64,000 nt of DNA, taken from contig OZ241865.1 in assembly GCA_965203275.1 (NCBI GenBank), forward strand, positions 512,001-576,000, given 5' to 3'. The stretch comes from Bdellovibrionales bacterium. GTDB lineage: Bacteria; Bdellovibrionota; Bdellovibrionia; Bdellovibrionales; JAUICD01. Shown piece after piece: positions 10,071 through 64,000 of this stretch (the first letter of the stretch is position 1; each line of letters begins with the position of its first letter). A model generated the notes under the pieces. The model saw only the letters and a list, made by a program, of their open reading frames with translations. It was not told the DNA's origin and made no database searches. The position numbers were made by a program, and so were the translations under genes.

Positions 10071-10445
10071 TTGTTAAGAAAAGAGAGGATATTCTCCTCT
10101 AGAGGAATAGGCAGTCAGGTTATTTTAAATCCTGAGTGCCTGTTTGCCGGAAGGCAAGATACCATATCCGGCATCTGGGATCCGGGATCCGGCATCTGGG
10201 ATCCGGCAACTGGCATCCGAGATCCGGGATCTGGGATCCGGGATCTGGGATCCGGGATCCGGCAACCCGGCAGACAGGGATGAAAAAATGCCTTGTTTCC
10301 TTAACATGATGTTAAAAGAGGAAAGGATCCTCCTACTAAAAGTGGTCAAGCTTTCTAGGTTGCCAGCAATTGAGAAGGCGAAAGCCTTCGGCTGGCAACC
10401 AGAAAGTAGCCAGAGGCTAGTTCAATTTTAGGGAAACTTAGTGAA
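10071..10445. repeat. Repeat cluster 1: heptamer array (10165-10270) plus one chimeric structured unit (10294-10437)
   Basis: GGGATC[CT] heptamers; TGTTTCCTTAACA...GGCGAAAGCC...CCAGAGG...GGGAAAC. Confidence 0.9.
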
Positions 10446-10529: not shown

Positions 10530-11276
10530 ATGAAAAATTTATTTTCAATAACTATTTTATTTTTAGCAGTTATTTTTATAGGTTGCAGTCAAGTCAACAA
10601 TGAGGTATGGAACAATACCCTTGCAGAATTTAAAAATCAAGTGACAACCCTTGTCAATACTATTGAAACAACACCCGATGAATACACTCCTACCAATATT
10701 GAAACTATTCGTTTATGGAGAGCCTCACATAATCAAGATGGTGATCTGCTTGCATTCTATATAGATATAAGGCTTGATGAAGAAGATATCACTCTGACCT
10801 ATAACATAAACAGGCAGGTGGAAATAGAAGGGACAAATATAACCCTCTTAGCCTCTGTAGAAGACCTTGAAACAAGCCCTGCTGATCTTTCACCTAAAAA
10901 TAAAATTCTTTTCATAGATAGAGCAAATGACACTAACAATAATGAAATAATGAGAGGTAATATTCAAGTGGTTGCACCTTCTCTTATTAATAGGCTACGT
11001 ACAGCTTGGATGGAAGGGGAGTCTATATCTGGTATACCAAACATAGGACAAACTGAGGCTATTTTCCTTTTACACTTTGAAAGTTTAGATACTTCTTTAA
11101 ATCAGTTTGATACAAGAGAAGAAATCCCTACTCAAATGAGATATGCGGTGAACCTCATTCGCAGAGACAATAATAATTGGACTATAGAGACTATAGAAGG
11201 TCAATCGGGATTATTTGACTCACCTAGAGAAGATATTTCTATCACTCCAAACCCAAATATTTTTCAAATAAAGTGA
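10530..11276 (+). CDS. Hypothetical lipoprotein
   Basis: 248 aa; lipobox FIGC. Confidence 0.75.
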   Translation: MKNLFSITILFLAVIFIGCSQVNNEVWNNTLAEFKNQVTTLVNTIETTPDEYTPTNIETIRLWRASHNQDGDLLAFYIDIRLDEEDITLTYNINRQVEIEGTNITLLASVEDLETSPADLSPKNKILFIDRANDTNNNEIMRGNIQVVAPSLINRLRTAWMEGESISGIPNIGQTEAIFLLHFESLDTSLNQFDTREEIPTQMRYAVNLIRRDNNNWTIETIEGQSGLFDSPREDISITPNPNIFQIK

Positions 11277-11282
11277 CCGTTT

Positions 11283-11752
11283 TGTTTCACTCAAAGTGAA
11301 CTGACCTCTGGTCACTTTTGGACAATGACCGCAAAGGCTTTCGCCTTTGACAAAATGGTCATTGTCTCAAAAGCCTGTTCACTTTGAGTAGGGAGGATCT
11401 CCTCGTCTCTTGACCACATGTTAGGGAAACAGAGTTTTATTCGCAAACTGTTTGCTCCTGAGATAATAAAAGAAATTTTCCCTAACATGGTGTAAAGAAA
11501 TAAAAGGATCCTCCCTACTCAAAATGCATAGATTTTTGAGGCAATCAGCCTTTGATCGACGGCGGTAGCCGTCGGGCTGATTGTCCAAAAACATGCCAGA
11601 GGCATGATGCATTTTGAGTGAAATGTTAAGGAAAAAGTTCCTTCTTACGGCTTTTGGCTCTCGCCGTTGATCAAAGGCTAACTGCCTAGAAAATCCATTT
11701 ATTTTGAGTAGGGAAGGATCTCCTCATTTTTTAACACAATGTTAAGGAAACA
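11283..11752. repeat. Repeat cluster 2: forward unit 11283-11431, reverse unit 11477-11623, half unit to 11752
   Basis: Nested inverted repeats and shared terminal motifs TGTTTCACTCAAA / TGTTAGGGAAACA. Confidence 0.92.
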
Positions 11753-11797
11753 AGGTTTTCGCTTCACTCCTGCCCGTTTGCCTGATGCCGGGTTGCC

Positions 11798-12018
11798 GGA
11801 TCCCAGATCCCGGATCCCGGATCCCAGATCCCGGATCCCGGATCCCAGATCCCAGATCCCGGATCCCAGATCCCAGATCCCAGATCCCGGATCCCGGATC
11901 CCGGATCCCAGATCCCGGATCCCGGATCCCGGATCCCGGATCCCAGATCCCGGATCCCAGATCCCGGATCCCGGATCCCAGATCCCAGATCCCAGATCCC
12001 GGATCCCAGATCCCAGAT
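11798..12018 (+). repeat. Heptamer tandem array (GATCCC[A/G]) of about 31 units
   Basis: Directly visible. Confidence 0.97.
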
Positions 12019-12149
12019 GAATACACCTTTATTGTGTGAAGAAAAAAGTTTCTACCTATCCATAGTATAATTGTTGATTTTTTTAAAAATTTAAAGAATA
12101 CTCATAACATAAAAGTATCAAAGTCGAGAAGGCCAAAAGAGAGAAATAT

Positions 12150-52759: not shown

Positions 52760-54406
52760 ATGTTGATTATGTGTAAATATATTCATGTTGATCTACTGAC
52801 AAAAGTTTTAAAGTGGCACACATTGGTGTTTCTTATCACTTATTTTGCCTTAGATACCCCTACAGAAATATCTTCTATAAAACATATAATGCGTTTTTCA
52901 TCAGCAGAAGCGCAAACTAAAAGGCCACAGCAAAAGAGAAAATCAAGAGCTTTAAGGCAGTTAGGTGAGGCTGTCGGTTTGTTGAAAGAAGACAGATTTG
53001 AAGAAGCCTCTCAAATACTTTTTGACTTACGCTCTCACTCATCGTTTAGGAGGCGAGGACGTATTTATTATATTTTAGGGCTAACACTTTTTAAAATGAA
53101 TTTATTCCAAATCTCTGCCTTTCAATTTTCTGAGGTCATTCGCAGAAAAGATCCTAAGTATCTTCAACCCAGTGTAGAAAAGCTTATTCTTTTGACAAAT
53201 GAAATTTTAAGCTCAAGTGCTGTGTTAAATTATGCACTGGGTAATATTGATTTAGCGTCATTTCCAAAAGCTCATAGAGATCGCCTTCATCTGCGTATTG
53301 GTGAAGTACAAGTTAATAATAAACAATTTTCAGAAGCTATAAGAACTTTAAGAAACATTAATTCCAATAGTAAAGTCTATCCTCATGCAAAATATTTAGA
53401 AGGATTATCTTATGCAGAATTAAATCGGCCACGACGAGCATTGAGGTCTTTTTCTCGTATAGTAGATAGCAGAGCAAACCATCCTGTGAACGATCGTATA
53501 AAGGCTATGGGACTTATGGGCATGGCCCGATCTGCTTATCAGCTTAAAGATTGGAATCGAGCTATTGATCTCTACAGACGTATTCCTAGAGATACACAAG
53601 AATGGTTTGATTCTCTTTTTGAGTTGACATGGGCCCAGATGCGAGCTGCTCAATTTCGATTTGTTTTAGGTAATTTTCATTCTTTGCACTCTCCTTATTA
53701 TGAAACAAATTATCAACCAGAATCTTTTATTTTAAGGTCCATTGTTTACCTTTATATCTGTCAATACAAAGAAATGGAAAGAACGCTTAATTTCTTTCAA
53801 AAAGTATATTTTCCTGTGAGAGATAAAATTAGAACTTATATGAGAGCAAATAATAACTCCAGAGATATCTACAGTGATTTTGAGAAGATGTATCAAAATG
53901 GTGATTATTTATATCAAGAACCAGAAAATACAAAGGTCCCTTATATTGCCGTTAAGCATATTTTTACAGAGGAAGATGTCAGCAGTGGTATGTCTTATAT
54001 CACACAAGTTCAAAAAGAACTACAAGCTGTCAACAGTATGTCAGATGCATGGCAAAATTCTAAAATGGGACGTTATGCTAAAAGATTGCTGACTAGAAGA
54101 TTGCAAAATACTAAAAAAGTTGTAGGTGAACAAATTGCTATTCATTTAAGGCGTATAAGAGCTGATTTAGCAAAGTTTATTCGGCAACATGGGCTGGCTC
54201 GCTATGAAATGTTGAATGCTCAAAAGGATGTATTAAAACGTAGAATTGTGGAGCGAGATACCAAAATGCAAAGTCTATCACAAGCAGAACGAAATCGAAA
54301 CTTCTATGTACAAGGAGGTTTTGAATATTGGCCTTTTCAAGGTGAGTATTGGCTAGATGAAGTAGGTAATTATTATTATCTAGGAACCAATACCTGTGCT
54401 AATTAA
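52760..54406 (+). CDS. TPR protein, GltC-like gliding-motility component
   Basis: TPRs; LGNFHSLHSPYY...PES; C-terminal EYWPFQGEYWLDEVGNY. Confidence 0.8.
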   Translation: MLIMCKYIHVDLLTKVLKWHTLVFLITYFALDTPTEISSIKHIMRFSSAEAQTKRPQQKRKSRALRQLGEAVGLLKEDRFEEASQILFDLRSHSSFRRRGRIYYILGLTLFKMNLFQISAFQFSEVIRRKDPKYLQPSVEKLILLTNEILSSSAVLNYALGNIDLASFPKAHRDRLHLRIGEVQVNNKQFSEAIRTLRNINSNSKVYPHAKYLEGLSYAELNRPRRALRSFSRIVDSRANHPVNDRIKAMGLMGMARSAYQLKDWNRAIDLYRRIPRDTQEWFDSLFELTWAQMRAAQFRFVLGNFHSLHSPYYETNYQPESFILRSIVYLYICQYKEMERTLNFFQKVYFPVRDKIRTYMRANNNSRDIYSDFEKMYQNGDYLYQEPENTKVPYIAVKHIFTEEDVSSGMSYITQVQKELQAVNSMSDAWQNSKMGRYAKRLLTRRLQNTKKVVGEQIAIHLRRIRADLAKFIRQHGLARYEMLNAQKDVLKRRIVERDTKMQSLSQAERNRNFYVQGGFEYWPFQGEYWLDEVGNYYYLGTNTCAN

Positions 54407-54411
54407 AATCT

Positions 54412-56180
54412 CTGGGATCCCGGGATCTGGGATCCGGGATCCTGGGATCCGGCAATCAGGCAACCCGGCATCAGATCCCGGGGTGAAATAAACAGCTTGT
54501 TTCCTTAACATGTAGTTAAGAAAGGAGGATATCCTCCCCTACTCAAAATGAGCAGTTTTTTGCGGCATTGCTCTTTTTAGACAGCGTAAGCTGTCAGAGC
54601 AATGCCCAAAAACACACCAGAGGTGTGGCTCATTTTGAGTGAAACAACTAACTCCCTACTAAAAGTAAACGGACTTTTGAGACATTGCTCTTTTTGGACA
54701 GCGTAAGCTGTCAGAGCAATGTCCAAAAGTAGCCAGAGGCTAGTTTACTTTTAGTGAAAAACAGTTCAGGCAATACTAGATTTGGAATTTGTTGGCTGTA
54801 TGAAATTAGCAAAACAAGCTGATAGATTAGGTGCTGTTTTGTACAAGTTATGTAAAAATACTTAAATTCAAATTTGATTTTTCCTGGGATCTGGGATCCG
54901 GGATCTGGCAACCCGGCATCAGATCCCGGGGTGAAATAAACAGCTTGTTTCCTTAACATGTAGTTAAGAAAGGAGGATATCCTCCCCTACTCAAAATGAG
55001 CAGTTTTTTGCGGCATTGCTCTTTTTAGACAGCGTAAGCTGTCAGAGCAATGCCCAAAAACACACCAGAGGTGTGGCTCATTTTGAGTGAAACAACTAAC
55101 TCCCTACTAAAAGTAAACGGACTTTTGAGACATTGCTCTTTTTGGACAGCGTAAGCTGTCAGAGCAATGTCCAAAAGTAGCCAGAGGCTAGTTTACTTTT
55201 AGTGAAAAACAGTTCAGGCAATACTAGATTTGGAATTTGTTGGCTGTATGAAATTAGCAAAACAAGCTGATAGATTAGGTGCTGTTTTGTACAAGTTATG
55301 TAAAAATACTTAAATTCAAATTTGATTTTTCCTGGGATCTGGGATCCGGGATCTGGCAACCCGGCATCAGATCACAGAAATGAACTTTTTCCTTAACATG
55401 AAGTAAAAAAATGAAGGGATCCTCCTTACTCAAAGTGAACAGGCTTTCTAGGTTGCCAGCATTTGAGAAGGCGATAGCCTTCGGCTGGCAACCAGAAAGT
55501 GGCCAGAGGCCAGTTCACTTTGAGTGAACCAACTAACTCCCTACTAAAAGTAAACGGACTTTTGAGGTAGCCAGCCTTTGATCGACGGCGGTAGCCGTCG
55601 GGCTGGCTACCCAAAAGTGACCAGAGGTCAGTTTACTTTTAGTGCAGATCAAATGAGGCAATGACCATTTTGCCAATGGCGAAAGCCATTGCGGTCATCG
55701 CCCAGGGTGTAAGAAGGAACTTTTTCCTTAACATGGGGTTTATCCGGGATCCGGGATCCGGCCACTGGCAACCCGGCAGGAGTGAAGCGAAAATCTTGTT
55801 TCCTTAACATTTCACTCAAAATGAGCCACACCGCTGGTGTGTTTTTTGGTGTTGCCTGCAAAGGCTTTCGCCTTTGACAAAATAGGCAACACCTAAAAAA
55901 TCCGCTCATTTTGAGTAGAGGAGGATCCTTTTATTCCTTTACAACATGTTAAGGAAAAAGTGTTTTTATTGTCTTAGGAGCAAGCGGGCTACGATAAAGA
56001 AACTTTTTCCTTAACATGGTGTTAAGAAATGAGGACATCCTTCTTCCTAAAATTGAACAAGCTTTCTAGGCAATGACCATTTTGCCAATGGCGAAAGCCA
56101 TTGCGGTCATTGCCAGAAAGTAGCCAGAGGCTAGTTCAATTTTAGGGAAACAGAGGCTAGACCACTTTTAGTGAACCAGA
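54412..56180. repeat. Repeat cluster 10, including a 448-bp tandem duplication
   Basis: 54459-54906 repeated at 54907-55354. Confidence 0.92.
54764..54865 (+). pseudogene. 3' fragment of a four-helix-bundle gene (duplicated at 55212-55313)
   Basis: VQAILDLEFVGCMKLAKQADRLGAVLYKLCKNT*, homologous to 61280-61333(-). Confidence 0.75.
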
Positions 56181-56184
56181 AGTG

Positions 56185-56685
56185 TTAATTTATCCCTATA
56201 GCATTTATTAATTCTAAAAGATGTGTTGTAAAGTAATGACGGGTTCCAATTTTAATAATACCTTTTTTACTTATCTGCACTTGTATATGAGAACTATCTG
56301 AAAACACAAATTCAATATCTTCAGACCATTCAAGAGGAGCTTTTAACATTTCAAGATCAACCTCATCTCTTATCTTAATATTGCAAAAGTCGTTAATACT
56401 CTTCTGCACTAACTCTAAAGGAGCATCACCTCTACCTATCCAATTTCCATCAACAAGTTTAAGGGAGGTAGCGTTTGTATTTGATTTGAACCTTATTTGC
56501 ATCTCCACAATATCATACTTACAAATTCGCTTGTTATATTTCGAGATATATTGATTGCGATCCTTTAATGAAGATATGTCAATATCTCCTTCTTGTTCTT
56601 GTGGTTTTAAATAGTAAATAAAACCAATCACACAAACAAATAAAAAACTTAAAACACTTATTCTAACAAATAATTGAATATTCAT
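56185..56685 (-). CDS. Hypothetical protein with N-terminal TM
   Basis: 166-aa ORF. Confidence 0.65.
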   Translation of the reverse strand: MNIQLFVRISVLSFLFVCVIGFIYYLKPQEQEGDIDISSLKDRNQYISKYNKRICKYDIVEMQIRFKSNTNATSLKLVDGNWIGRGDAPLELVQKSINDFCNIKIRDEVDLEMLKAPLEWSEDIEFVFSDSSHIQVQISKKGIIKIGTRHYFTTHLLELINAIGIN

Positions 56686-56954
56686 AATCTATTCCTTTAT
56701 TTTTAATACTTGTATTTTTAATACTTGCATTTATTAAACTTCTTAAACTTAATCCGAACCTTACAACATTTTGTAAAATATTTCAACCTAAATTTAAGTA
56801 TGTAATTTTTACATAAAAGTCCTTATAAATATTGTAAATATTCTCAGTTTAAATAGACCTTCGGCTCTAAGTAGGTTATAAATATTGATTTTTAAGCTAT
56901 TTAAAGATAATATTTTATAATAGAATTTAGTCAAGGATGAGGGGGAGATGATTA

Positions 56955-57730
56955 TCCGGGATCTGGGATCCGGGGGCTGGGATCCGGGACCTGGGATCCG
57001 GGGGCTGGGATCCGGGAACCGGGATCTGGGGGCTTGGGATCTGGGATCTGGCAACCCGGCAGACAGGCAAGGAAAAATCGTGTTAAGAGACAAAAGGATT
57101 ATCCCTAACCCCACCCACCACCCTTCAATTCTGCTTTTCCATTTGTATATTTTTTATGAGTGGAATGCGGGGTCAGGCTTCCGAAGTCCTCAATTTTTTT
57201 CACTCAAAATGAACTGGCCTCTGGCCACTTTCTGGTTGCCAGCCGAAGGCTATCGCCTTCTCAAATGCTGACAACCTAGAAAGCTTGTTCATTTTGAGTA
57301 GAGAAGGATCTCCTTGCTTCTGACACCATGTTAGGGAAAAAGTGCTTTTATTACATTAAAAGCAAGCGGGTTTACGAATGAAGTTACGAATGAAGTTCTT
57401 TTTCCTTAACATTGTGTTAAGAAATGAGGAGATCCTCCTTCCTAAAATTGAACAAGCTTTTGAGACAGTTAGCCTTTGATCGACGGCGAGAGCCGTCGGG
57501 CTAACTGTCCAAAAGTAGCCAGCAGTGATAAAGGAGCTTTTTCCTTAACATGGTGTTAAAAGAGGAAAGGATCCTTCCTACTCAAAGTGAACAGGCTTTC
57601 TAGGCGATGACCATTTTACCGATGGCGAAAGCCATCGTGGTCATCGCCAGAAAGTGGCCAGAGGCCAGTTCACTTTGAGTGAAACAGAGGCTAGTTCAAT
57701 TTTAGGGAACCAGACCACTTTTAGTGAAAG
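56955..57730. repeat. Repeat cluster 11: degenerate heptamers, partial module B, structured units
   Basis: Same motifs as the other clusters. Confidence 0.9.
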
Positions 57731-57738
57731 GATGATTT

Positions 57739-58992
57739 ATGCAAATATTTTATTTTTATTTACCTTTTAGCTATAAACTCAGAGGTTTTTTTTATAAAAC
57801 AAAAGTCTTAAAATTTTTAATGTTAAGTTTGATGGGCCTAATGCTCTCTTGTGATCGATTAGAATTCCAAGCAGGATCTTTTGAATTCAATGAAGATATT
57901 TTACAAGGAACAGAGGACAATCCCTCATCTCTACAAGCACCTCAAAGATCTCATTTTGTACATGTCACTCCTACTCAACGCATAGACCCATCAAAGATTC
58001 CTTTATGGTTTATAGATGATTTAAATTTTAATGGTATGGACAAGGCCATTAGCTATCAACTTAAAAGATTTCAACAGCTTTATTTATCTGGAACAATTCA
58101 ATTTGGAGAGGATGTGTATCCTAGGGCTATACTGCCTTTTGCACTGAGAAAATTTCAAGTCTTATATCATGCTTACAAAGACTGTTTAAGAAATCAAAAT
58201 ATGAATCAATGTCGGTATGCTTTCCATCAAGTTTTGATCAATCAATTTCATGTTTATGAGCCAAAAAGTTCTATCAATCGAAGTCATCCTGCTCATTTTA
58301 CTGCTTATTATCATCCTACACTTTTAGCTTCAAAGATTAGAACAAATAGGTTTAGATATGCAGTTTATGCAAAGCCTCAGGTAGCTCATTTAAGGACTCT
58401 TTCAAGATGTCAAATTGATATTCAAGGAAGACTTTTAGGTCATGGCTATGAATTATTCTATACTGACAATTTGTATAACATTTATAATTTGCACATTCAA
58501 GGAGGAGGGCAAACAGCTTTTGTTGATGGTAGCCGTAATTTTTATTTGCATTTTGATGGTAGCAACCAAAAACGTACAAGATTTTTTTCTAAACAAAGGT
58601 TTTTAGCAGCCAGTCCAAAGAGACAAGCTGAAATGATTTGTAGCTCACCTAATTATGTATATTTTAAACCATCCTTAAGGGCAGCCATTGGAAGTGACGA
58701 CGTGTCTTTAACAGATCACCGCTCTATAGCAACAGATAGCAGATATTATAGACAAAAAGGTATTTTAGCTTTTGTACAAGCTAAAAGGCCAAGTTACAAT
58801 ATATGGAGAGAAACAGGACGCATTCGCATACAAAACTTTTCTCGATTTGTTTTAGATCAAGACACTGGTAGTGCTATCCGAGGAAAAGCTCGTGTAGATT
58901 TATTTTTTGGCTATAGTCAATATGCCAGTGTAGCAGCTTATCATGTTAATAATTACGGAAGGTTATTTTTCTTGATGCCCAAAGGTCCCTAG
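57739..58992 (+). CDS. mltA: Membrane-bound lytic murein transglycosylase A (true start may be downstream)
   Basis: Lipobox MLSC; FTAYYHP, HIQGGG, NYVYF, RSIATD, DQDTGSAIRG..RVDLFFG. Confidence 0.88.
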   Translation: MQIFYFYLPFSYKLRGFFYKTKVLKFLMLSLMGLMLSCDRLEFQAGSFEFNEDILQGTEDNPSSLQAPQRSHFVHVTPTQRIDPSKIPLWFIDDLNFNGMDKAISYQLKRFQQLYLSGTIQFGEDVYPRAILPFALRKFQVLYHAYKDCLRNQNMNQCRYAFHQVLINQFHVYEPKSSINRSHPAHFTAYYHPTLLASKIRTNRFRYAVYAKPQVAHLRTLSRCQIDIQGRLLGHGYELFYTDNLYNIYNLHIQGGGQTAFVDGSRNFYLHFDGSNQKRTRFFSKQRFLAASPKRQAEMICSSPNYVYFKPSLRAAIGSDDVSLTDHRSIATDSRYYRQKGILAFVQAKRPSYNIWRETGRIRIQNFSRFVLDQDTGSAIRGKARVDLFFGYSQYASVAAYHVNNYGRLFFLMPKGP

Positions 58993-59270
58993 ACTTTCAG
59001 ATAGCAGGTCACATACTTGCTTAGCTTTATGCATAAACTAAAATTACATATTACTTTCATTAAGTAAAACAAGCTGTCAAGCCTGTCTTTTAAAGGTTCT
59101 GTGTAAAGATATGTCATCATTATAAACTGCCTTGCTATCATATTTGAACTATGGTTTTTAAACCCACTTATAAATATTCTTTCTTATAAAGCTTATTATT
59201 TTTTATAATTCTATTTTATTTTTAAAATAAGTTTGCTGGAATAAAATAAATTTTCATACAATAAAAAGTT

Positions 59271-60506
59271 ATGCATCAAAAAATATTTTCCACATTGAAC
59301 TTTGTATCTAAAATATGCCTTTGTTTATATATAGAAACAATACTTTTGATTTTAACTCAAGGCTATGTTTATGCTCAGTCTATCTCTCTCCCCATCCGAA
59401 TGGATGATATAGAAGAAGTTTGGTCATTTATTGATATTGACCTTAATGAAATAGACAAGCTAGGTAATACTATTTTACATAGACATGCTGCTACAGGGCA
59501 TATTGATATTATAGATAGTTTGATAGGGCTTCGCATCACTGAAACCATGAATATTCACCAGACGAATCATCTAGGTAATACACCTTTGTATTCTGCTACT
59601 AGCAGTGGAAGAGAGGTGATCACTAAGATGTTCATTGATTTAGGTATGGACGTGAATGCCACAAATGATTCAGGTGAAACACCACTCCATATTGCCGCTC
59701 ATATAGGTGATATAGACATTATAAAAATTTTGATAGAAGCTGGTTCTGATCTTAATAAGAAAGACCTCATAGGTAAACAACCCCTCTATTACGCTGCAAG
59801 AGCTAGTAAAAATCAGGCTGTAGGCTTATTATTGGGTCATGGTGCTGATTTTGATAGAAACTATGAAATTTCTGATTATGATGAAGAATTGATACCCTAT
59901 ATTGAAAACATAGATAGTGAACTTTTACCTTATATTGATAAATATGAAAACCTTAAAGGTTCACCTATAAAGGATAATATTCGCTTTGCTTTTAAACGAC
60001 TAAGAATACTTTCAGCTAATTGTACAGTGAGATTAGAAACAATAGGTTTACGTTGGATTTTTATTGATCCTTATATTTGGAATGCTCTCAGCCCTTCAAT
60101 CAGAGAGTTATTGCTCTTTCATGAATTAGGGCATTGTGATTTAAACAGAGGACATGAAAATAATAGTTTTGTTGTATCTGTTATGAACTCAGGAGTTCCT
60201 TTCCAACCAATAGATGATTTATTATATGAAGAGCTTTTTTCAAAAAGGAACACATCGGAGCTTATTAATCAATGGAGTGAAGACGAAGAAGTTCTTAAAA
60301 AATTTACTCAAATAAGAAGAGGTATGTCCACATTTGAAATTCTTGATCTCATTGGCCATCCTATTTTTGCAGAGCAAAAGAGACAAGCAGAGTATTGGAG
60401 ATACAGTTTTTATCAACATAGACTATGGAAAGAAATTAAGTTTGATCAAGAGGGGCAAGTCACTGGCATTGAAGATTATAAAATTGCCATTTATCCAGAT
60501 ATCTAA
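59271..60506 (+). CDS. Secreted ankyrin-repeat protein with HExxH zinc-protease motif and SmpA/OmlA-like C-terminus
   Basis: GNTILH, GNTPLY, GETPLH, GKQPLY; LLFHELGHCDLNRGH; FTQIRRGMSTFEILDLIGHP...YWRY. Confidence 0.8.
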   Translation: MHQKIFSTLNFVSKICLCLYIETILLILTQGYVYAQSISLPIRMDDIEEVWSFIDIDLNEIDKLGNTILHRHAATGHIDIIDSLIGLRITETMNIHQTNHLGNTPLYSATSSGREVITKMFIDLGMDVNATNDSGETPLHIAAHIGDIDIIKILIEAGSDLNKKDLIGKQPLYYAARASKNQAVGLLLGHGADFDRNYEISDYDEELIPYIENIDSELLPYIDKYENLKGSPIKDNIRFAFKRLRILSANCTVRLETIGLRWIFIDPYIWNALSPSIRELLLFHELGHCDLNRGHENNSFVVSVMNSGVPFQPIDDLLYEELFSKRNTSELINQWSEDEEVLKKFTQIRRGMSTFEILDLIGHPIFAEQKRQAEYWRYSFYQHRLWKEIKFDQEGQVTGIEDYKIAIYPDI

Positions 60507-60512
60507 TCAACA

Positions 60513-62265
60513 TCTCACTAAAAATAAACCAGCCTCTGGCTACTTTTGGGCATTGGCTCACTAAAAGTGGTCTAGCCTCTGGCTACTTTCTGGCAATGAC
60601 CGCAATGGCTTTCGCCATTGGCAAAATGGTCATTGCCTAGAAAGCTTGACCACTTTTAGTAGGGAGGATCCCTTCGTCCCTTAACTCCATGTTAAGGAGT
60701 TGTTTCACTAAAAGTGGTCTAGCCTCTGGCTACTTTCTGGCGATGACCACGATGGCTTTCGCCATCGATAAAATGTTCATCGCCTAGAAAGCCTGACCAC
60801 TTTTAGTAGGAGGATCCTTTCCTCTTTTAACATCATGTTAAGGAAACAAAATGCTTTCAAAATTATATTAAAAGAGCAATGCCTCAAAAATCCGTTTATT
60901 TTTAGTAGGAAGAATCCTTTTGTCTCTTTACACGATGTTAAGGAAACAGTTCCTTCTGATCCCGGGTTGCCGGTTGCCGGATCCCGGATCCCGGATTGAC
61001 ACGATGTTAAGGAAACAGTTCTTTCTTACACCTTTTGGCTGTCGCCGTCGATCAAAGGCTGAGTTGTTTCACTCAAAGTGAACTGACCTCTGGTCACTTT
61101 TGGACAATGACCGCAAAGGCTTTCGCCTTTGACAAAATGGTCATTGTCTCAAAAGCCTGTTCACTTTGAGTAGAGAGGATCCTTTTTTCTCTTAACACCA
61201 TGTTAAGGAAAAAGAGTTCTTTCTGATCCCGGGTTGCCGGATGCCAGATCCCGGATCCCGGAAAAGATCAAATTTGACTTTAAGTATTTTTACACAGTTT
61301 GTATAAATAAGCTCCTAATTGATCAGCTTGTTTTGTTTCACTAAAAGTGGTCTAGCCTCTGGCTACTTTCTGGCGATGACCACGATGGCTTTTGCCATCG
61401 ATAAAATGGTCATCGCCTAGAAAGCCTGACCACTTTTAGTAGAAAGGATCTCTTCGTTTTTTAACACCATGTTAAGGAAAAAGAGTTTCATTGAGATTTC
61501 TTAGAGAGCCAAGACTAATATAATAAAATTTCCTACGATCTTTTGCTGTAGGTTTAGCAGATCCTTCAGCTAAGTTAAGTACAATACTTGAAACAGCCCT
61601 TCGAAATTGACTTCTATGAGGCTCTTTCAGATGTAATTTTTTAGAGTTACGATAAAACTGAGTAGCTAATTGATAAGTTTTGAATTTTTGCATCGTCATA
61701 AAAATTTCCTCCTTTCTGAAAACCCGCCAGGGCTTGGGAGGAAATTTTTTAGATGCAAAAATTTATTACGATCAATGCTTTAGGACCTGATGCCAGATTG
61801 TTTCACTAAAAGTGGTCTAGCCTCTGGCATGTTTTCTGGCAGTTAGCCCGACGGCTCTTGCCGTCGATCAAAGGCTGAGTTGTTTCACTCAAAGTGAACT
61901 GACCTCTGGTCACTTTTGGACAATGACCGCAAAGGCTTTCGCCTTTGACAAAATGGTCATTGTCTCAAAAGCCTGTTCACTTTGAGTAGAGAGGATCCTT
62001 TTTTCTCTTAACACCATGTTAAGGAAAAAGAGTTCTTTCTGATCCCTGACTGCCGGATCCCGGGTTGTTTCACTAAAAGTGGTCTAGCCTCTGGCTACTT
62101 TCTGGCGATGACCACGATGGCTTTCGCCATCGATAAAATGGTCATCGCCTAGAAAGCCTGACCACTTTTAGTAATGAGGATCTCTTCGTCTCTTGACCAC
62201 ATGTTAAGGAAACAAAATGCCTTTTCTGCCTGATGCCGGGTTGCCGGATCCCAGATCCCGGAGGG
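60513..62265. repeat. Repeat cluster 12: head-to-tail units enclosing a broken four-helix-bundle gene
   Basis: Units at 60555, 60701, 61064, 61334, 61881 and 62066. Confidence 0.92.
61280..61699 (-). pseudogene. Four-helix-bundle protein (23S rRNA IVP / Avd-like family) interrupted by a repeat unit
   Basis: N-part MQKFKTYQLA...SQFRRAVSSIVLNLAEGSAK...DRRKFYYISLGSLR (61699 to ~61493); C-part KQADQLGAYLYKLCKNT* (61333-61280). Confidence 0.85.
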
Positions 62266-62413
62266 AAAATCAAATCAAAAATCAACTCACAAACCATGTA
62301 AATTATTCATATAAACCCTTGCAAAGAACATATTTTTTACAAACGTGTTTTTCTACTTGACATCGTGTTCTTCTTGCTTGCTATAAAGAAGCAAATATAG
62401 TATAGCCTTCCTT

Positions 62414-64000
62414 ATGATGAACAAATATCATCCTTTTTTATGTTTATTTTTTGTAGTCAATGTAATCAATGTTTGTAAGGCATTTGCCTTCCCACAAGAA
62501 GACTGCCCTGGCGTTTTACTTACCACTTTGGATAAAGATCATCAAAGGTTCAGAGAGCTTTCACCAGAAGCTCAAAACATGCTCCAGATAGCTTCAATCA
62601 TTGCTCAGGTGACACATAACAATGACTCTATACCAGCAAAAATGAATATTTATCATGTCCTACTTGCAGCTTTGACAAAAATCCAATCAGCCAATGAGGC
62701 CATCTATCGTTTAAATTTAGAGGATTTAGCTGGTGATGGTGAAAATAAAAGTGCATTATTTGTTGTGTTAGAGAATTTAGGGATTTTAAGAGATTTTCAA
62801 AGATTTCTTTTAAAAGAAATAGGTTTAAATAGTAGCAACCCAGAGCCTTTTGAATTCCAATCAGATAGATTACTTCTTCTCAATTTGAATGAAGCTGTAT
62901 TGACATCGATAAAAATTGACTATGATGAAGAATTTGATCGCTTATGGAACTTAGCTATTCGTGAGAAAGAAGAAGAGATCAGAACCATACATCGTCAAAA
63001 TGGTCGGATTTTACAACTTAGTAATACAGAAAATGTAGTCAGGTACATAAAAATTAGGGATAAGACAAAACGATATGATAAGACTTTTCGGATTCCCACA
63101 TTTCCAGAACATTTCTTTTTAGCATCCTTGCATGTTGATTTGCCTATTTTTCATTTTCTATCAGAGTATTTTGATGGTAAGACACCGGCTCAGATTAAAG
63201 GTACACTCTATCCATTGATAGATCAAGCTAAGCAATCTTTTTGGAATTTTTCAAAAAAGAAAAAACGCAATTCACATTCTAAAGAAGAAAAAGCAATAAT
63301 TACTCTTAAACTAGAAGCTCTCTTTGCAGATCATCCGGGAGGTTTAACTTTAAAGCAGATCAAGGCTGGAATAACAGAGTTTGCTAACAGTTCAGATAGG
63401 ACAATTCGCAACAGACTAAAGGAAAATGGGTATGGAGTTCAAGGAACTTTTCCGGGGGCTTTATGGAATCATCAAATAAGAATAGATAAAGAAAAGCCAA
63501 GACTTCGTCGCAAGCTAGAAACTCTCTTTGCAAATCATCCGGGAGGTTTAACTTTCAAGCAGATAAAGGCTGGAATATCAGAGTTTGCTAATATGCCAGA
63601 TAAGACAATTCACAACAGACTAAAGGAAAATGGGTATGGAGTTCAAGGAATTTTTCCGGGGGCTTTATGGAATCATCAAATAAGAATAGATGAAGAAAAG
63701 GCAAAACTTCGTCACGATCTAGAAGATCTCTTTGCAGATCATCCGGGAGGTTTAACTTTAAAGCAGATCAAGGCTGGAATAACAGAGTTTGCTAACATTT
63801 CAGATAGGACAATTCGCGAAAGACTAAAGGAAAATGGATATGAAGTTCAAGGACTCGGTCCGTATGCTTTATGGTATCAGCAAGGCCATCAAACAAGACA
63901 TGATGAAGAAAAAGCAATAATTACTCTTAAACTAGAAACTCTCTTTGCAGATCATCCGGGAGGTTTAACTTTCCAGCAGATAAAGGACGCTGGAATAACA
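62414..64000 (+). CDS. Secreted protein with Clp-N-like region and tandem 68-aa winged-helix-like repeats, 3' end outside window
   Basis: Manual translation is stop-free from ATG 62414 to the window end; signal peptide ending AFA; repeats at 204/204/213-nt spacing. Not in the ORF track. Confidence 0.85.
   Translation, partial: MMNKYHPFLCLFFVVNVINVCKAFAFPQEDCPGVLLTTLDKDHQRFRELSPEAQNMLQIASIIAQVTHNNDSIPAKMNIYHVLLAALTKIQSANEAIYRLNLEDLAGDGENKSALFVVLENLGILRDFQRFLLKEIGLNSSNPEPFEFQSDRLLLLNLNEAVLTSIKIDYDEEFDRLWNLAIREKEEEIRTIHRQNGRILQLSNTENVVRYIKIRDKTKRYDKTFRIPTFPEHFFLASLHVDLPIFHFLSEYFDGKTPAQIKGTLYPLIDQAKQSFWNFSKKKKRNSHSKEEKAIITLKLEALFADHPGGLTLKQIKAGITEFANSSDRTIRNRLKENGYGVQGTFPGALWNHQIRIDKEKPRLRRKLETLFANHPGGLTFKQIKAGISEFANMPDKTIHNRLKENGYGVQGIFPGALWNHQIRIDEEKAKLRHDLEDLFADHPGGLTLKQIKAGITEFANISDRTIRERLKENGYEVQGLGPYALWYQQGHQTRHDEEKAIITLKLETLFADHPGGLTFQQIKDAGIT

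Follow-up and report, generated by a model that had tools for sequence, protein, structure and literature searches.

A repeat-armed four-helix-bundle gene cassette interrupted by a Y-shaped non-coding repeat in a Bdellovibrionales genome

PF05635 is a large protein family whose role is known only in DGRs. In Coxiella, the intervening sequence (IVS) of the 23S rRNA carries an ORF of this S23p/IVP family, with tandem heptamers before the ORF and a disabled ribosome site, and the ORF is described as a case of reductive evolution (PMC4990558), while family ORFs also occupy scattered rRNA insertion sites in CPR bacteria (bioRxiv 2024.02.27.582315). Avd, the DGR protein, is a basic pentamer that binds DNA, RNA and reverse transcriptase (RT) and is similar to PF05635/S23 (PMC5758913, PMC6182149, PMC10053308, bioRxiv 2023.10.23.563531). 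As for intergenic heptamers, the available text on those of Xanthomonas and Nostoc gives no general link to mobile elements (PMC4692102). To judge from the accessible portions of these sources, published work already covers the family, the relation of its fold to Avd (PMC10053308) and the presence of heptamers in front of one IVS ORF (PMC4990558). In the mainly open-access literature, we found no paper that describes four-helix-bundle cassettes with repeat arms, in many copies, outside rRNA.

The window analysed here is a stretch of 64,000 nucleotides, positions 512001-576000 of the forward strand of contig OZ241865.1 (GCA_965203275.1), from an uncultured Bdellovibrionales bacterium. The source genome (G000) is a single closed contig of 2.57 Mb with 35% GC and is 90% complete; G001 is its same-genus sister, and G002-G004 are the remaining three genomes of the taxonomic family. 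By arm we mean a short tandem array of 7/8-nt words bracketing the four-helix-bundle gene, by cassette the succession of arm, leader hairpin over the ribosome site, basic 99/101-aa ORF and arm, and by unit a Y-shaped non-coding DNA repeat of 146 nt, distinct from the cassette. An earlier note on this DNA had proposed that gene, heptamers and units are parts of one mobile system or, alternatively, that the gene's own element is simply a preferred target. On balance, we think it probable that two selfish elements are entangled here, namely a mobile gene cassette and a likely independent Y-shaped unit that cuts it, fused in this lineage.

The source genome has large paralogue families, as in host-associated bacteria, namely some 40 ankyrin proteins, 11 pilin-like genes, two Rpn groups of 25 and many short coiled-coil proteins with an NHIP motif; a sponge metagenome run contains pieces of the window. 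Window positions 62414-64000 hold a member of a 13-copy family of proteins in which helix-turn-helix-like repeats of 68 aa (204-nt period) stand in tandem, and long heptamer arrays in opposite orientations (10138-10284 and 11746-12046) lie around a 248-aa gene (10530-11276) of a five-copy family.

The interrupted gene and its product

The earlier note had described a gene at 61699-61280(-), split by a unit (Table 1). The gene itself stands: its protein exceeds the curated cut-offs of PF05635 and TIGR02436 in a profile search, the translation of the 5' part is 100% identical in amino acids to three intact copies, and the second ATG, at 61693, is likely its true start. What does not stand is a simple split. 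Namely, the 163 nt of the insert take the place of the 49 nt at gene positions 202-250, and this without target duplication; the insert has a predicted fold with a z of about -11, and the junction of the 3' part is found at 7 places. The 187-bp direct repeats around the gene are, as had been claimed, identical over exactly 187 nt, with no extension. As ends of an element they were ruled out, being an ordinary local duplication of a unit: among 623 parsed full units there are 28 identical pairs less than 5 kb apart, all on the same strand and at about 46 times the distant rate, and the 187-nt pair is one of them. Nor do the copies have MITE or composite-transposon ends, a flanking exact repeat longer than 30 nt occurring in just 1 of the 9 intact ones. 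The second, paralogous 3' fragment in cluster 10 was likewise confirmed, with the same AAATTTGAT and heptamer tail; both of its pieces comprise codons 69-101 and lie inside the period-448 duplication. Taken together, the pieces do rebuild a protein of about 100 aa: they cover codons 1-67 and 69-101, and the full 101-aa form is intact elsewhere in the genome. Rfam gave no match at the gathering score over 54300-62400, the sub-threshold matches being plant miRNA hairpins only.

Table 1. Features of the interrupted gene locus and of cluster 10, in window coordinates
Feature	Position	Strand	Basis
5' part of the four-helix-bundle gene, codons 1-67	61499-61699	-	PF05635 47.8 bits, TIGR02436 48.8 bits
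163-nt insert: 16-nt head and one full Y-shaped unit	61336-61498	-	comparison with intact paralogue
3' part of the gene, positions 251-306, including stop codon	61280-61335	-	
Leader hairpin (predicted), spanning Shine-Dalgarno site (61712-61708) and first six codons	61682-61764	-	
Left repeat arm, remnant, cut by an older unit	61787-61796	-	sequence
AAATTTGAT tail common to gene 3' ends	61267-61275	-	
Right repeat arm: GGGATCY 7-mers and GGCA-type 7/8-mers, oriented as left arm	61223-61261	-	
Copy 1 of the 187-bp direct repeat: a single unit flanked by about 19 nt (5') and about 25 nt (3')	61044-61230	-	
Copy 2 of the 187-bp direct repeat, lying within an older unit (3' half at 61797-61859)	61860-62046	-	
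Gene-less arm, then full unit; commonest composite in the source genome	62064-62262	-	
3' piece of paralogous gene, positions 204-306, joined to unit 3' end (junction class n=12)	54763-54865	+	
Identical second 3' piece	55211-55313	+	
Exact tandem duplication, period 448, with repeat arms at its bounds	54459-55373	+	

The structure model is a confident four-helix bundle (pLDDT 93), and its top Foldseek matches are XCC0516 (2GSC) and BT_0352 (2RLD), the two Z values being 15.2 and 14.5. The protein is basic, with a net charge of +11 to +12, and by analogy with XCC0516, BT_0352 and Avd (PMC4990558, PMC5758913) it may form a homopentameric, nucleic-acid-binding ring. Intact copies in the source genome are laid out as arm, leader, ORF, AAATTTGAT-type tail and arm, with both arms in the same orientation and, in 6 of the 9, with a predicted left-right arm pairing that is better than that of shuffles by more than 2 sd. 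The arm period in the source genome is mostly 7 (70 spacings, against 36 of 8), while in G001 and G004 it is mostly 8; arm arrays number 134 per Mb in the source genome, 35 in G001 and 0-3 in the other members of the taxonomic family, and arrays are the break points of contigs in four sequencing runs. In a test using simple letter shuffles, a leader fold that covers the ribosome site and the first codons is predicted for 9 of 9, 8 of 14 and 15 of 18 family copies and for 7 of 15 copies from other families, but for just 3 of 120 host genes; the leader's 5' arm agrees with the base at codon 4 in 11 of 12 copies. Four other genomes (G031, G035, G025 and G026) contain head-to-head pairs of diverged four-helix-bundle genes (L014, L015, L018, L028 and L029, each at about 1400-1500) with a common, near-perfect palindromic leader of 60-85 nt that includes both ribosome sites; this shared leader suggests a fold-back duplication through the leader.

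Gene copies and units across the source genome

That the gene copies are relics, as they had been called, is not borne out, since nine intact copies under purifying selection exist beside 35 pieces. A blastn map of 45 rows, less one armless leader-like match, gives 44 whole or partial copies, namely 9 intact, 10 leader-only, 5 N-terminal and 20 C-terminal, while tblastn finds 14 N-terminal matches at 95-100% identity and the family profile 14 matches over the cut-off. The nine intact coding regions are mutually 91-98% identical, with pS 0.232, pN 0.019 and pN/pS 0.08, and their codon alleles comprise 49 synonymous and 16 replacement changes, against 3 and 7 among those private to broken pieces (Fisher p 0.007). 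What is more, 235 of 325 informative site pairs fail the four-gamete test, and hence the copies recombine. The breaks cluster at a few gene positions (-20/+11, 199-201/204-207 and 251), so that the broken pieces derive from few events. Neither the window copy nor any of the 9 intact copies is in rRNA, all being situated between protein genes, and none of the 44 pieces is within 20 kb of tRNA-Ile, the likely marker of the rRNA operon. The gene is the only recognisable coding cargo, as previously claimed, for the two named clusters, but not genome-wide: Rpn-family and DnaJ pieces also lie between units, as do pieces of insertion sequences that we take to be IS256-like and IS1634-like. Rpn and IS genes are broken in the same manner as the four-helix-bundle gene, and Rpn coding DNA is found within 25 nt of 45 unit 3' ends, some at gene ends and one internal junction 8 times.

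The unit has 1,459 non-overlapping matches in the source genome, 753 of them full length, which together occupy 6.7% of it; the reversed genome, as a control, gave zero. In its three-way junction, 29 of 41 pairs change on both sides and 97% of cells are paired, compared with 33-49% in slid controls, the structure having been derived from the same alignment as these counts. An empty paralogous site was found for 78 of 632 blocks, and among the matches listed most had lost target DNA; likewise among the matches listed, no gene junction has a target duplication, and the targets comprise Rpn genes, IS256-like and IS1634-like elements, other repeats and pilin-associated segments. The 110 distant identical pairs, which are not mutually independent, continue in identity on the 5' side only in 26, on the 3' side only in 5, on both in 24 and on neither in 55. 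One insertion of a unit into an Rpn gene, present in several copies, brought along an arm together with the opening bases of the cassette's leader. The unit, then, ends at a fixed 3' position and usually deletes target DNA; it makes no short target duplication and brings upstream passengers that vary and can include arms. Its pattern occurs in 0 viral contigs and 0 JGI contigs, and a genome scan gave only G001 among the matches listed.

Two side observations concern this repeat landscape. At G000:C1:893165-893320, 908239, 1707805 and 2025603, unit and arm sit in Rpn genes just before an internal ribosome site and ATG, leaving the C-terminal part as a separate ORF; Rpn genes have an internal small product. 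A second family of repeats has elements of about 250 nt that form long hairpins; it numbers well over 100 pieces and is often cut by the unit (e.g., window 57080-57180 and G000:C1:754510-754777).

Gene pieces and units are closely linked in this genome. Every one of the 44 pieces has a unit no more than 150 bp away, as against 27-28% of other ORFs, but a gene piece is present in just 42 of 415 unit clusters. Of 308 arm arrays, 260 lie within 100 bp of a unit, with strong polarity; a same-sense unit follows 274 of 373 arrays, and at least 92 arrays lie in the first hairpin of a unit. Similarly, a same-sense unit follows 26 of 29 gene 3' ends, while at host ORFs 111 are sense and 159 antisense. 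Behind 25 gene ends there are 13 unit head classes.

Cassette and unit in related genomes

Four of the nine intact sites were compared with relatives. In 4 of 4 relatives, rpoC is next to rpsL and mreD next to mrdA, and both sites are empty; the source genome has cassette and units between rpoC and rpsL and also behind mreD, a PBP2-type gene lying elsewhere (window 12150). There is no family gene within 1.5 kb of dnaB in 4 relatives or of the threonine dehydratase-like gene in 3, gene order being kept at neither; in all, the family gene is absent from 15 of 15 orthologous loci. The intact copies occupy lineage-specific sites, the cassette having come to new positions in the source genome. In a gene-copy tree built on 97 columns only, the source-genome copies and the G004 copies each fall on one side of a supported branch (97/94 and 99/98), while those of G001 do not. 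Single cassettes whose arm starts directly after a tRNA 3' end are seen in relatives (L017, L021 and L067); as a general target, tRNA 3' ends were set aside, the source genome following no such rule.

In G001, which has 34 gene matches in total, units occur at 15 of 22 gene loci fetched, and genes are broken at the codon 66-68 site, as in the source genome. However, a same-strand arm stands upstream of 240 of 1,171 unit starts in the source genome versus 0 of 47 in G001 (400 kb), from which we conclude that the arm-unit coupling is lineage-specific, a secondary fusion. In the survey of 151 genomes of the order, in which the unit search scored 20 candidates per genome under strict filters, the gene family is present in 58 (47 over the cut-off) and the unit in 3. 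The proximity of gene and unit, suggested earlier as a genome-wide check, holds in the source genome (44 of 44), while 55 of the 58 family-positive genomes lack the unit. Family matches are uneven within genera (0 in G003, 24 in G004). In G004 the cassette has multiplied, with units at 0 of 18 gene loci and none in 340 kb of main contigs; its units are only on three small contigs. Contig C11 of G004 is 92% like G001 but 83% like G004's congener, unlike a main contig, and on this likeness it is probably mis-binned. G004 was accordingly dropped as a third genome with cassette and unit, its unit contigs being probably mis-binned. The probable mis-binned contigs are C1, C4 and C11 (L076-L079) and C2, C3 and C5 (L097-L099), the tiny ones being mutually repetitive. 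The unit is then limited to one genus, whose genomes each have 33-34 gene matches; the survey found the unit in no genome that lacks the gene, and both true unit genomes have expanded cassettes.

In G004 another, unrelated hairpin repeat, which is found in 1 of 41 genomes, invades these genes; it is present at 9 of 18 gene loci, compared with 19% of random windows, in five of these loci through one common 63-nt module inside the gene. A relative that shares the ends of this repeat is present in G003, where the family gene is absent. This modular hairpin repeat of G003 and G004 (genus g3; L080-L096 in G004, e.g., L094:10100-10344, and L103 and L105 in G003) has fixed outer ends and interchangeable inner stems. 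Unrelated dispersed hairpin repeats were noted in G007 (L142, 13615-19999) and G011 (L145-L149), small closed genomes of the order without the gene family. That every cassette expansion brings a hairpin-repeat bloom was ruled out by 100-kb samples, in which repeats amount to 1.5-1.8% in G007, G011 and one of the two samples of G003, all gene-less, and to none in G031, G002 and G024, by a measure that missed the modular repeat of G004.

As to a mover, Y1 (RAYT) transposases gave 0 PF01797 matches at E 0.1 in the source genome and none in G003 and G004, with one in G001; IS110 was not found as a candidate mover, and the GxxExxY nuclease is present in 0 of the 5 taxonomic-family genomes. Rpn nucleases were rejected: they are abundant (57, 43, 0, 20 and 3 matches in G000-G004) but do not track the gene.

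Alternative explanations and known systems

These results fit best the alternative offered in the earlier note, with the gene's element as a preferred target of the unit (55 of 58 family genomes without unit, G004 0 of 18, G001 0 of 47). Of its one-system proposal, the part that joins gene and arms into a cassette survives, while the three-part system fails as a general rule. The gene is likely a selfish cassette cut and dragged along by the commoner unit, rather than the unit's helper gene. We envisage that a protein ring, nucleic-acid-binding by analogy, would bind its own arms, that the leader hairpin would keep the protein level low, and that the protein may aid cassette copying via a single-stranded intermediate, with a further enzyme. 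The unit, in turn, would be copied from its 3' end backwards, running past its own 5' end; where it landed behind an arm, arm-unit composites could spread and rejoin at arms by homology. A few hits in the gene (-20/+11, 199-201/204 and 251) would have been multiplied by passenger copying, local duplication and gene conversion, giving rise to what had been taken for relics.

How do other readings fare against these data? It is doubtful, in our opinion, that all parts form one system, in which the protein reads a word shared by the arms and the unit's single-stranded linker, the unit being a non-autonomous parasite of the cassette, like REPIN/RAYT. In its favor, the linker word tracks the arm word: GATC is in the linker of 451 of 620 distinct copies in the source genome versus 0 of 72 in G001, where AGTCT/AATCT/GTATC are in 56 of 72, and in the arm words GATC shifts likewise, from 55% to 6%. 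Confinement of the unit to a genus rich in gene matches, purifying selection on intact copies, the nearness of all 44 pieces to units and the basic charge of the protein point the same way. That said, the word shift is a single phylogenetic contrast between two genomes, and the match of linker and arm could come from sequence exchange at fusion junctions. Moreover, cassettes have expanded without the unit in G004, G021, G025 and others, hairpin repeats occur without the gene in G003, G007 and G011, the arm-unit coupling is absent from the G001 sample, and the unit destroys the gene and has no fixed flanking design. With similar reserve, and as a minority view, we entertain a transposase- and RT-free system in which a pentameric protein reads a 7/8-nt word and copies the cassette, being exploited by some 1,400 units with one linker word copy; if it were true, PF05635 would gain a function and bacterial heptamer arrays an explanation.

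Distinctly unlikely is a host-function gene that is not itself mobile and that, in this genome, spread solely by travelling with the unit, its copies being homogenised by gene conversion. A same-sense unit does stand behind the right arm in 8 of 9 intact copies, the four-gamete failures agree with conversion, and host benefit is equally compatible with purifying selection; however, the genome-specific multicopy expansion in G004 without the unit, the patchiness within genera, the 13 different unit heads behind arms and a hairpin predicted to silence translation speak against it. Highly improbable is a DGR-like retro-system, with the protein as Avd partner of an RT that copies unit RNA. The earlier note had stressed the structural relation to Avd, and there is a fold match (Z 12.7 with rmsd 1.8 and 95 aligned, the other Z being 12.1), and the fixed 3' and variable 5' unit end fits reverse transcription; G001 has three RVT_1 matches. 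A specific link gains no support, as identity is 8-9%, Avd is absent among the Foldseek matches listed, and unrelated bundles (a plant inhibitor and a designed bundle, Z 13.6 and 13.0) outscore it; the likeness of the modelled structure is one of fold only. Nor is the RT connection supported: there are 0 RVT_1 matches at E 0.1 in the source genome, a closed contig at 90% completeness, and none in G003 and G004, and young identical unit copies exist without RT.

Under our preferred reading of two entangled elements, one selfish repeat can amplify the ends of another, which calls for caution in equating physical linkage with one system. The nine intact genes under selection, the dated empty sites and the exact junctions make a test set, and since the arm and linker words of G001 differ from those of the source genome, binding specificity is testable by reciprocal swap.

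In IS91-type one-ended rolling-circle transposition and in 5'-variable retro-insertion, a fixed end is combined with variable read-through into the flank; the unit has a like fixed end and variable flank, but no transposase or RT was identified. With Avd of DGRs, the protein shares the four-helix fold and basic charge but just 8-9% identity, and the source genome has no RT found and no template/variable repeat pair seen. As far as the accessible description goes, REPIN/REP sequences with RAYT are alike in comprising hundreds of intergenic non-coding hairpin elements with arms changing together (PMC3337134), but the unit is a 146-nt three-way junction whose fixed end is polar, it deletes target DNA and carries passengers upstream, and no Y1 transposase was found in the source genome. 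The heptamers of Xanthomonas and Nostoc, in the available text, are likewise G-rich 7-nt tandem arrays, a few hundred per genome (PMC4692102), whereas the arrays here bracket a gene and are carried by a repeat, with a period of mostly 8 in G001 and G004. The S23p/IVP proteins XCC0516 (2GSC) and BT_0352 (2RLD) have the same family and fold as the source-genome protein. Finally, compared with the Coxiella IVS, the gene here is located away from rRNA and is present as 44 copies or pieces; it has an arm on each side and a hairpin at the ribosome site, and it is under purifying selection.
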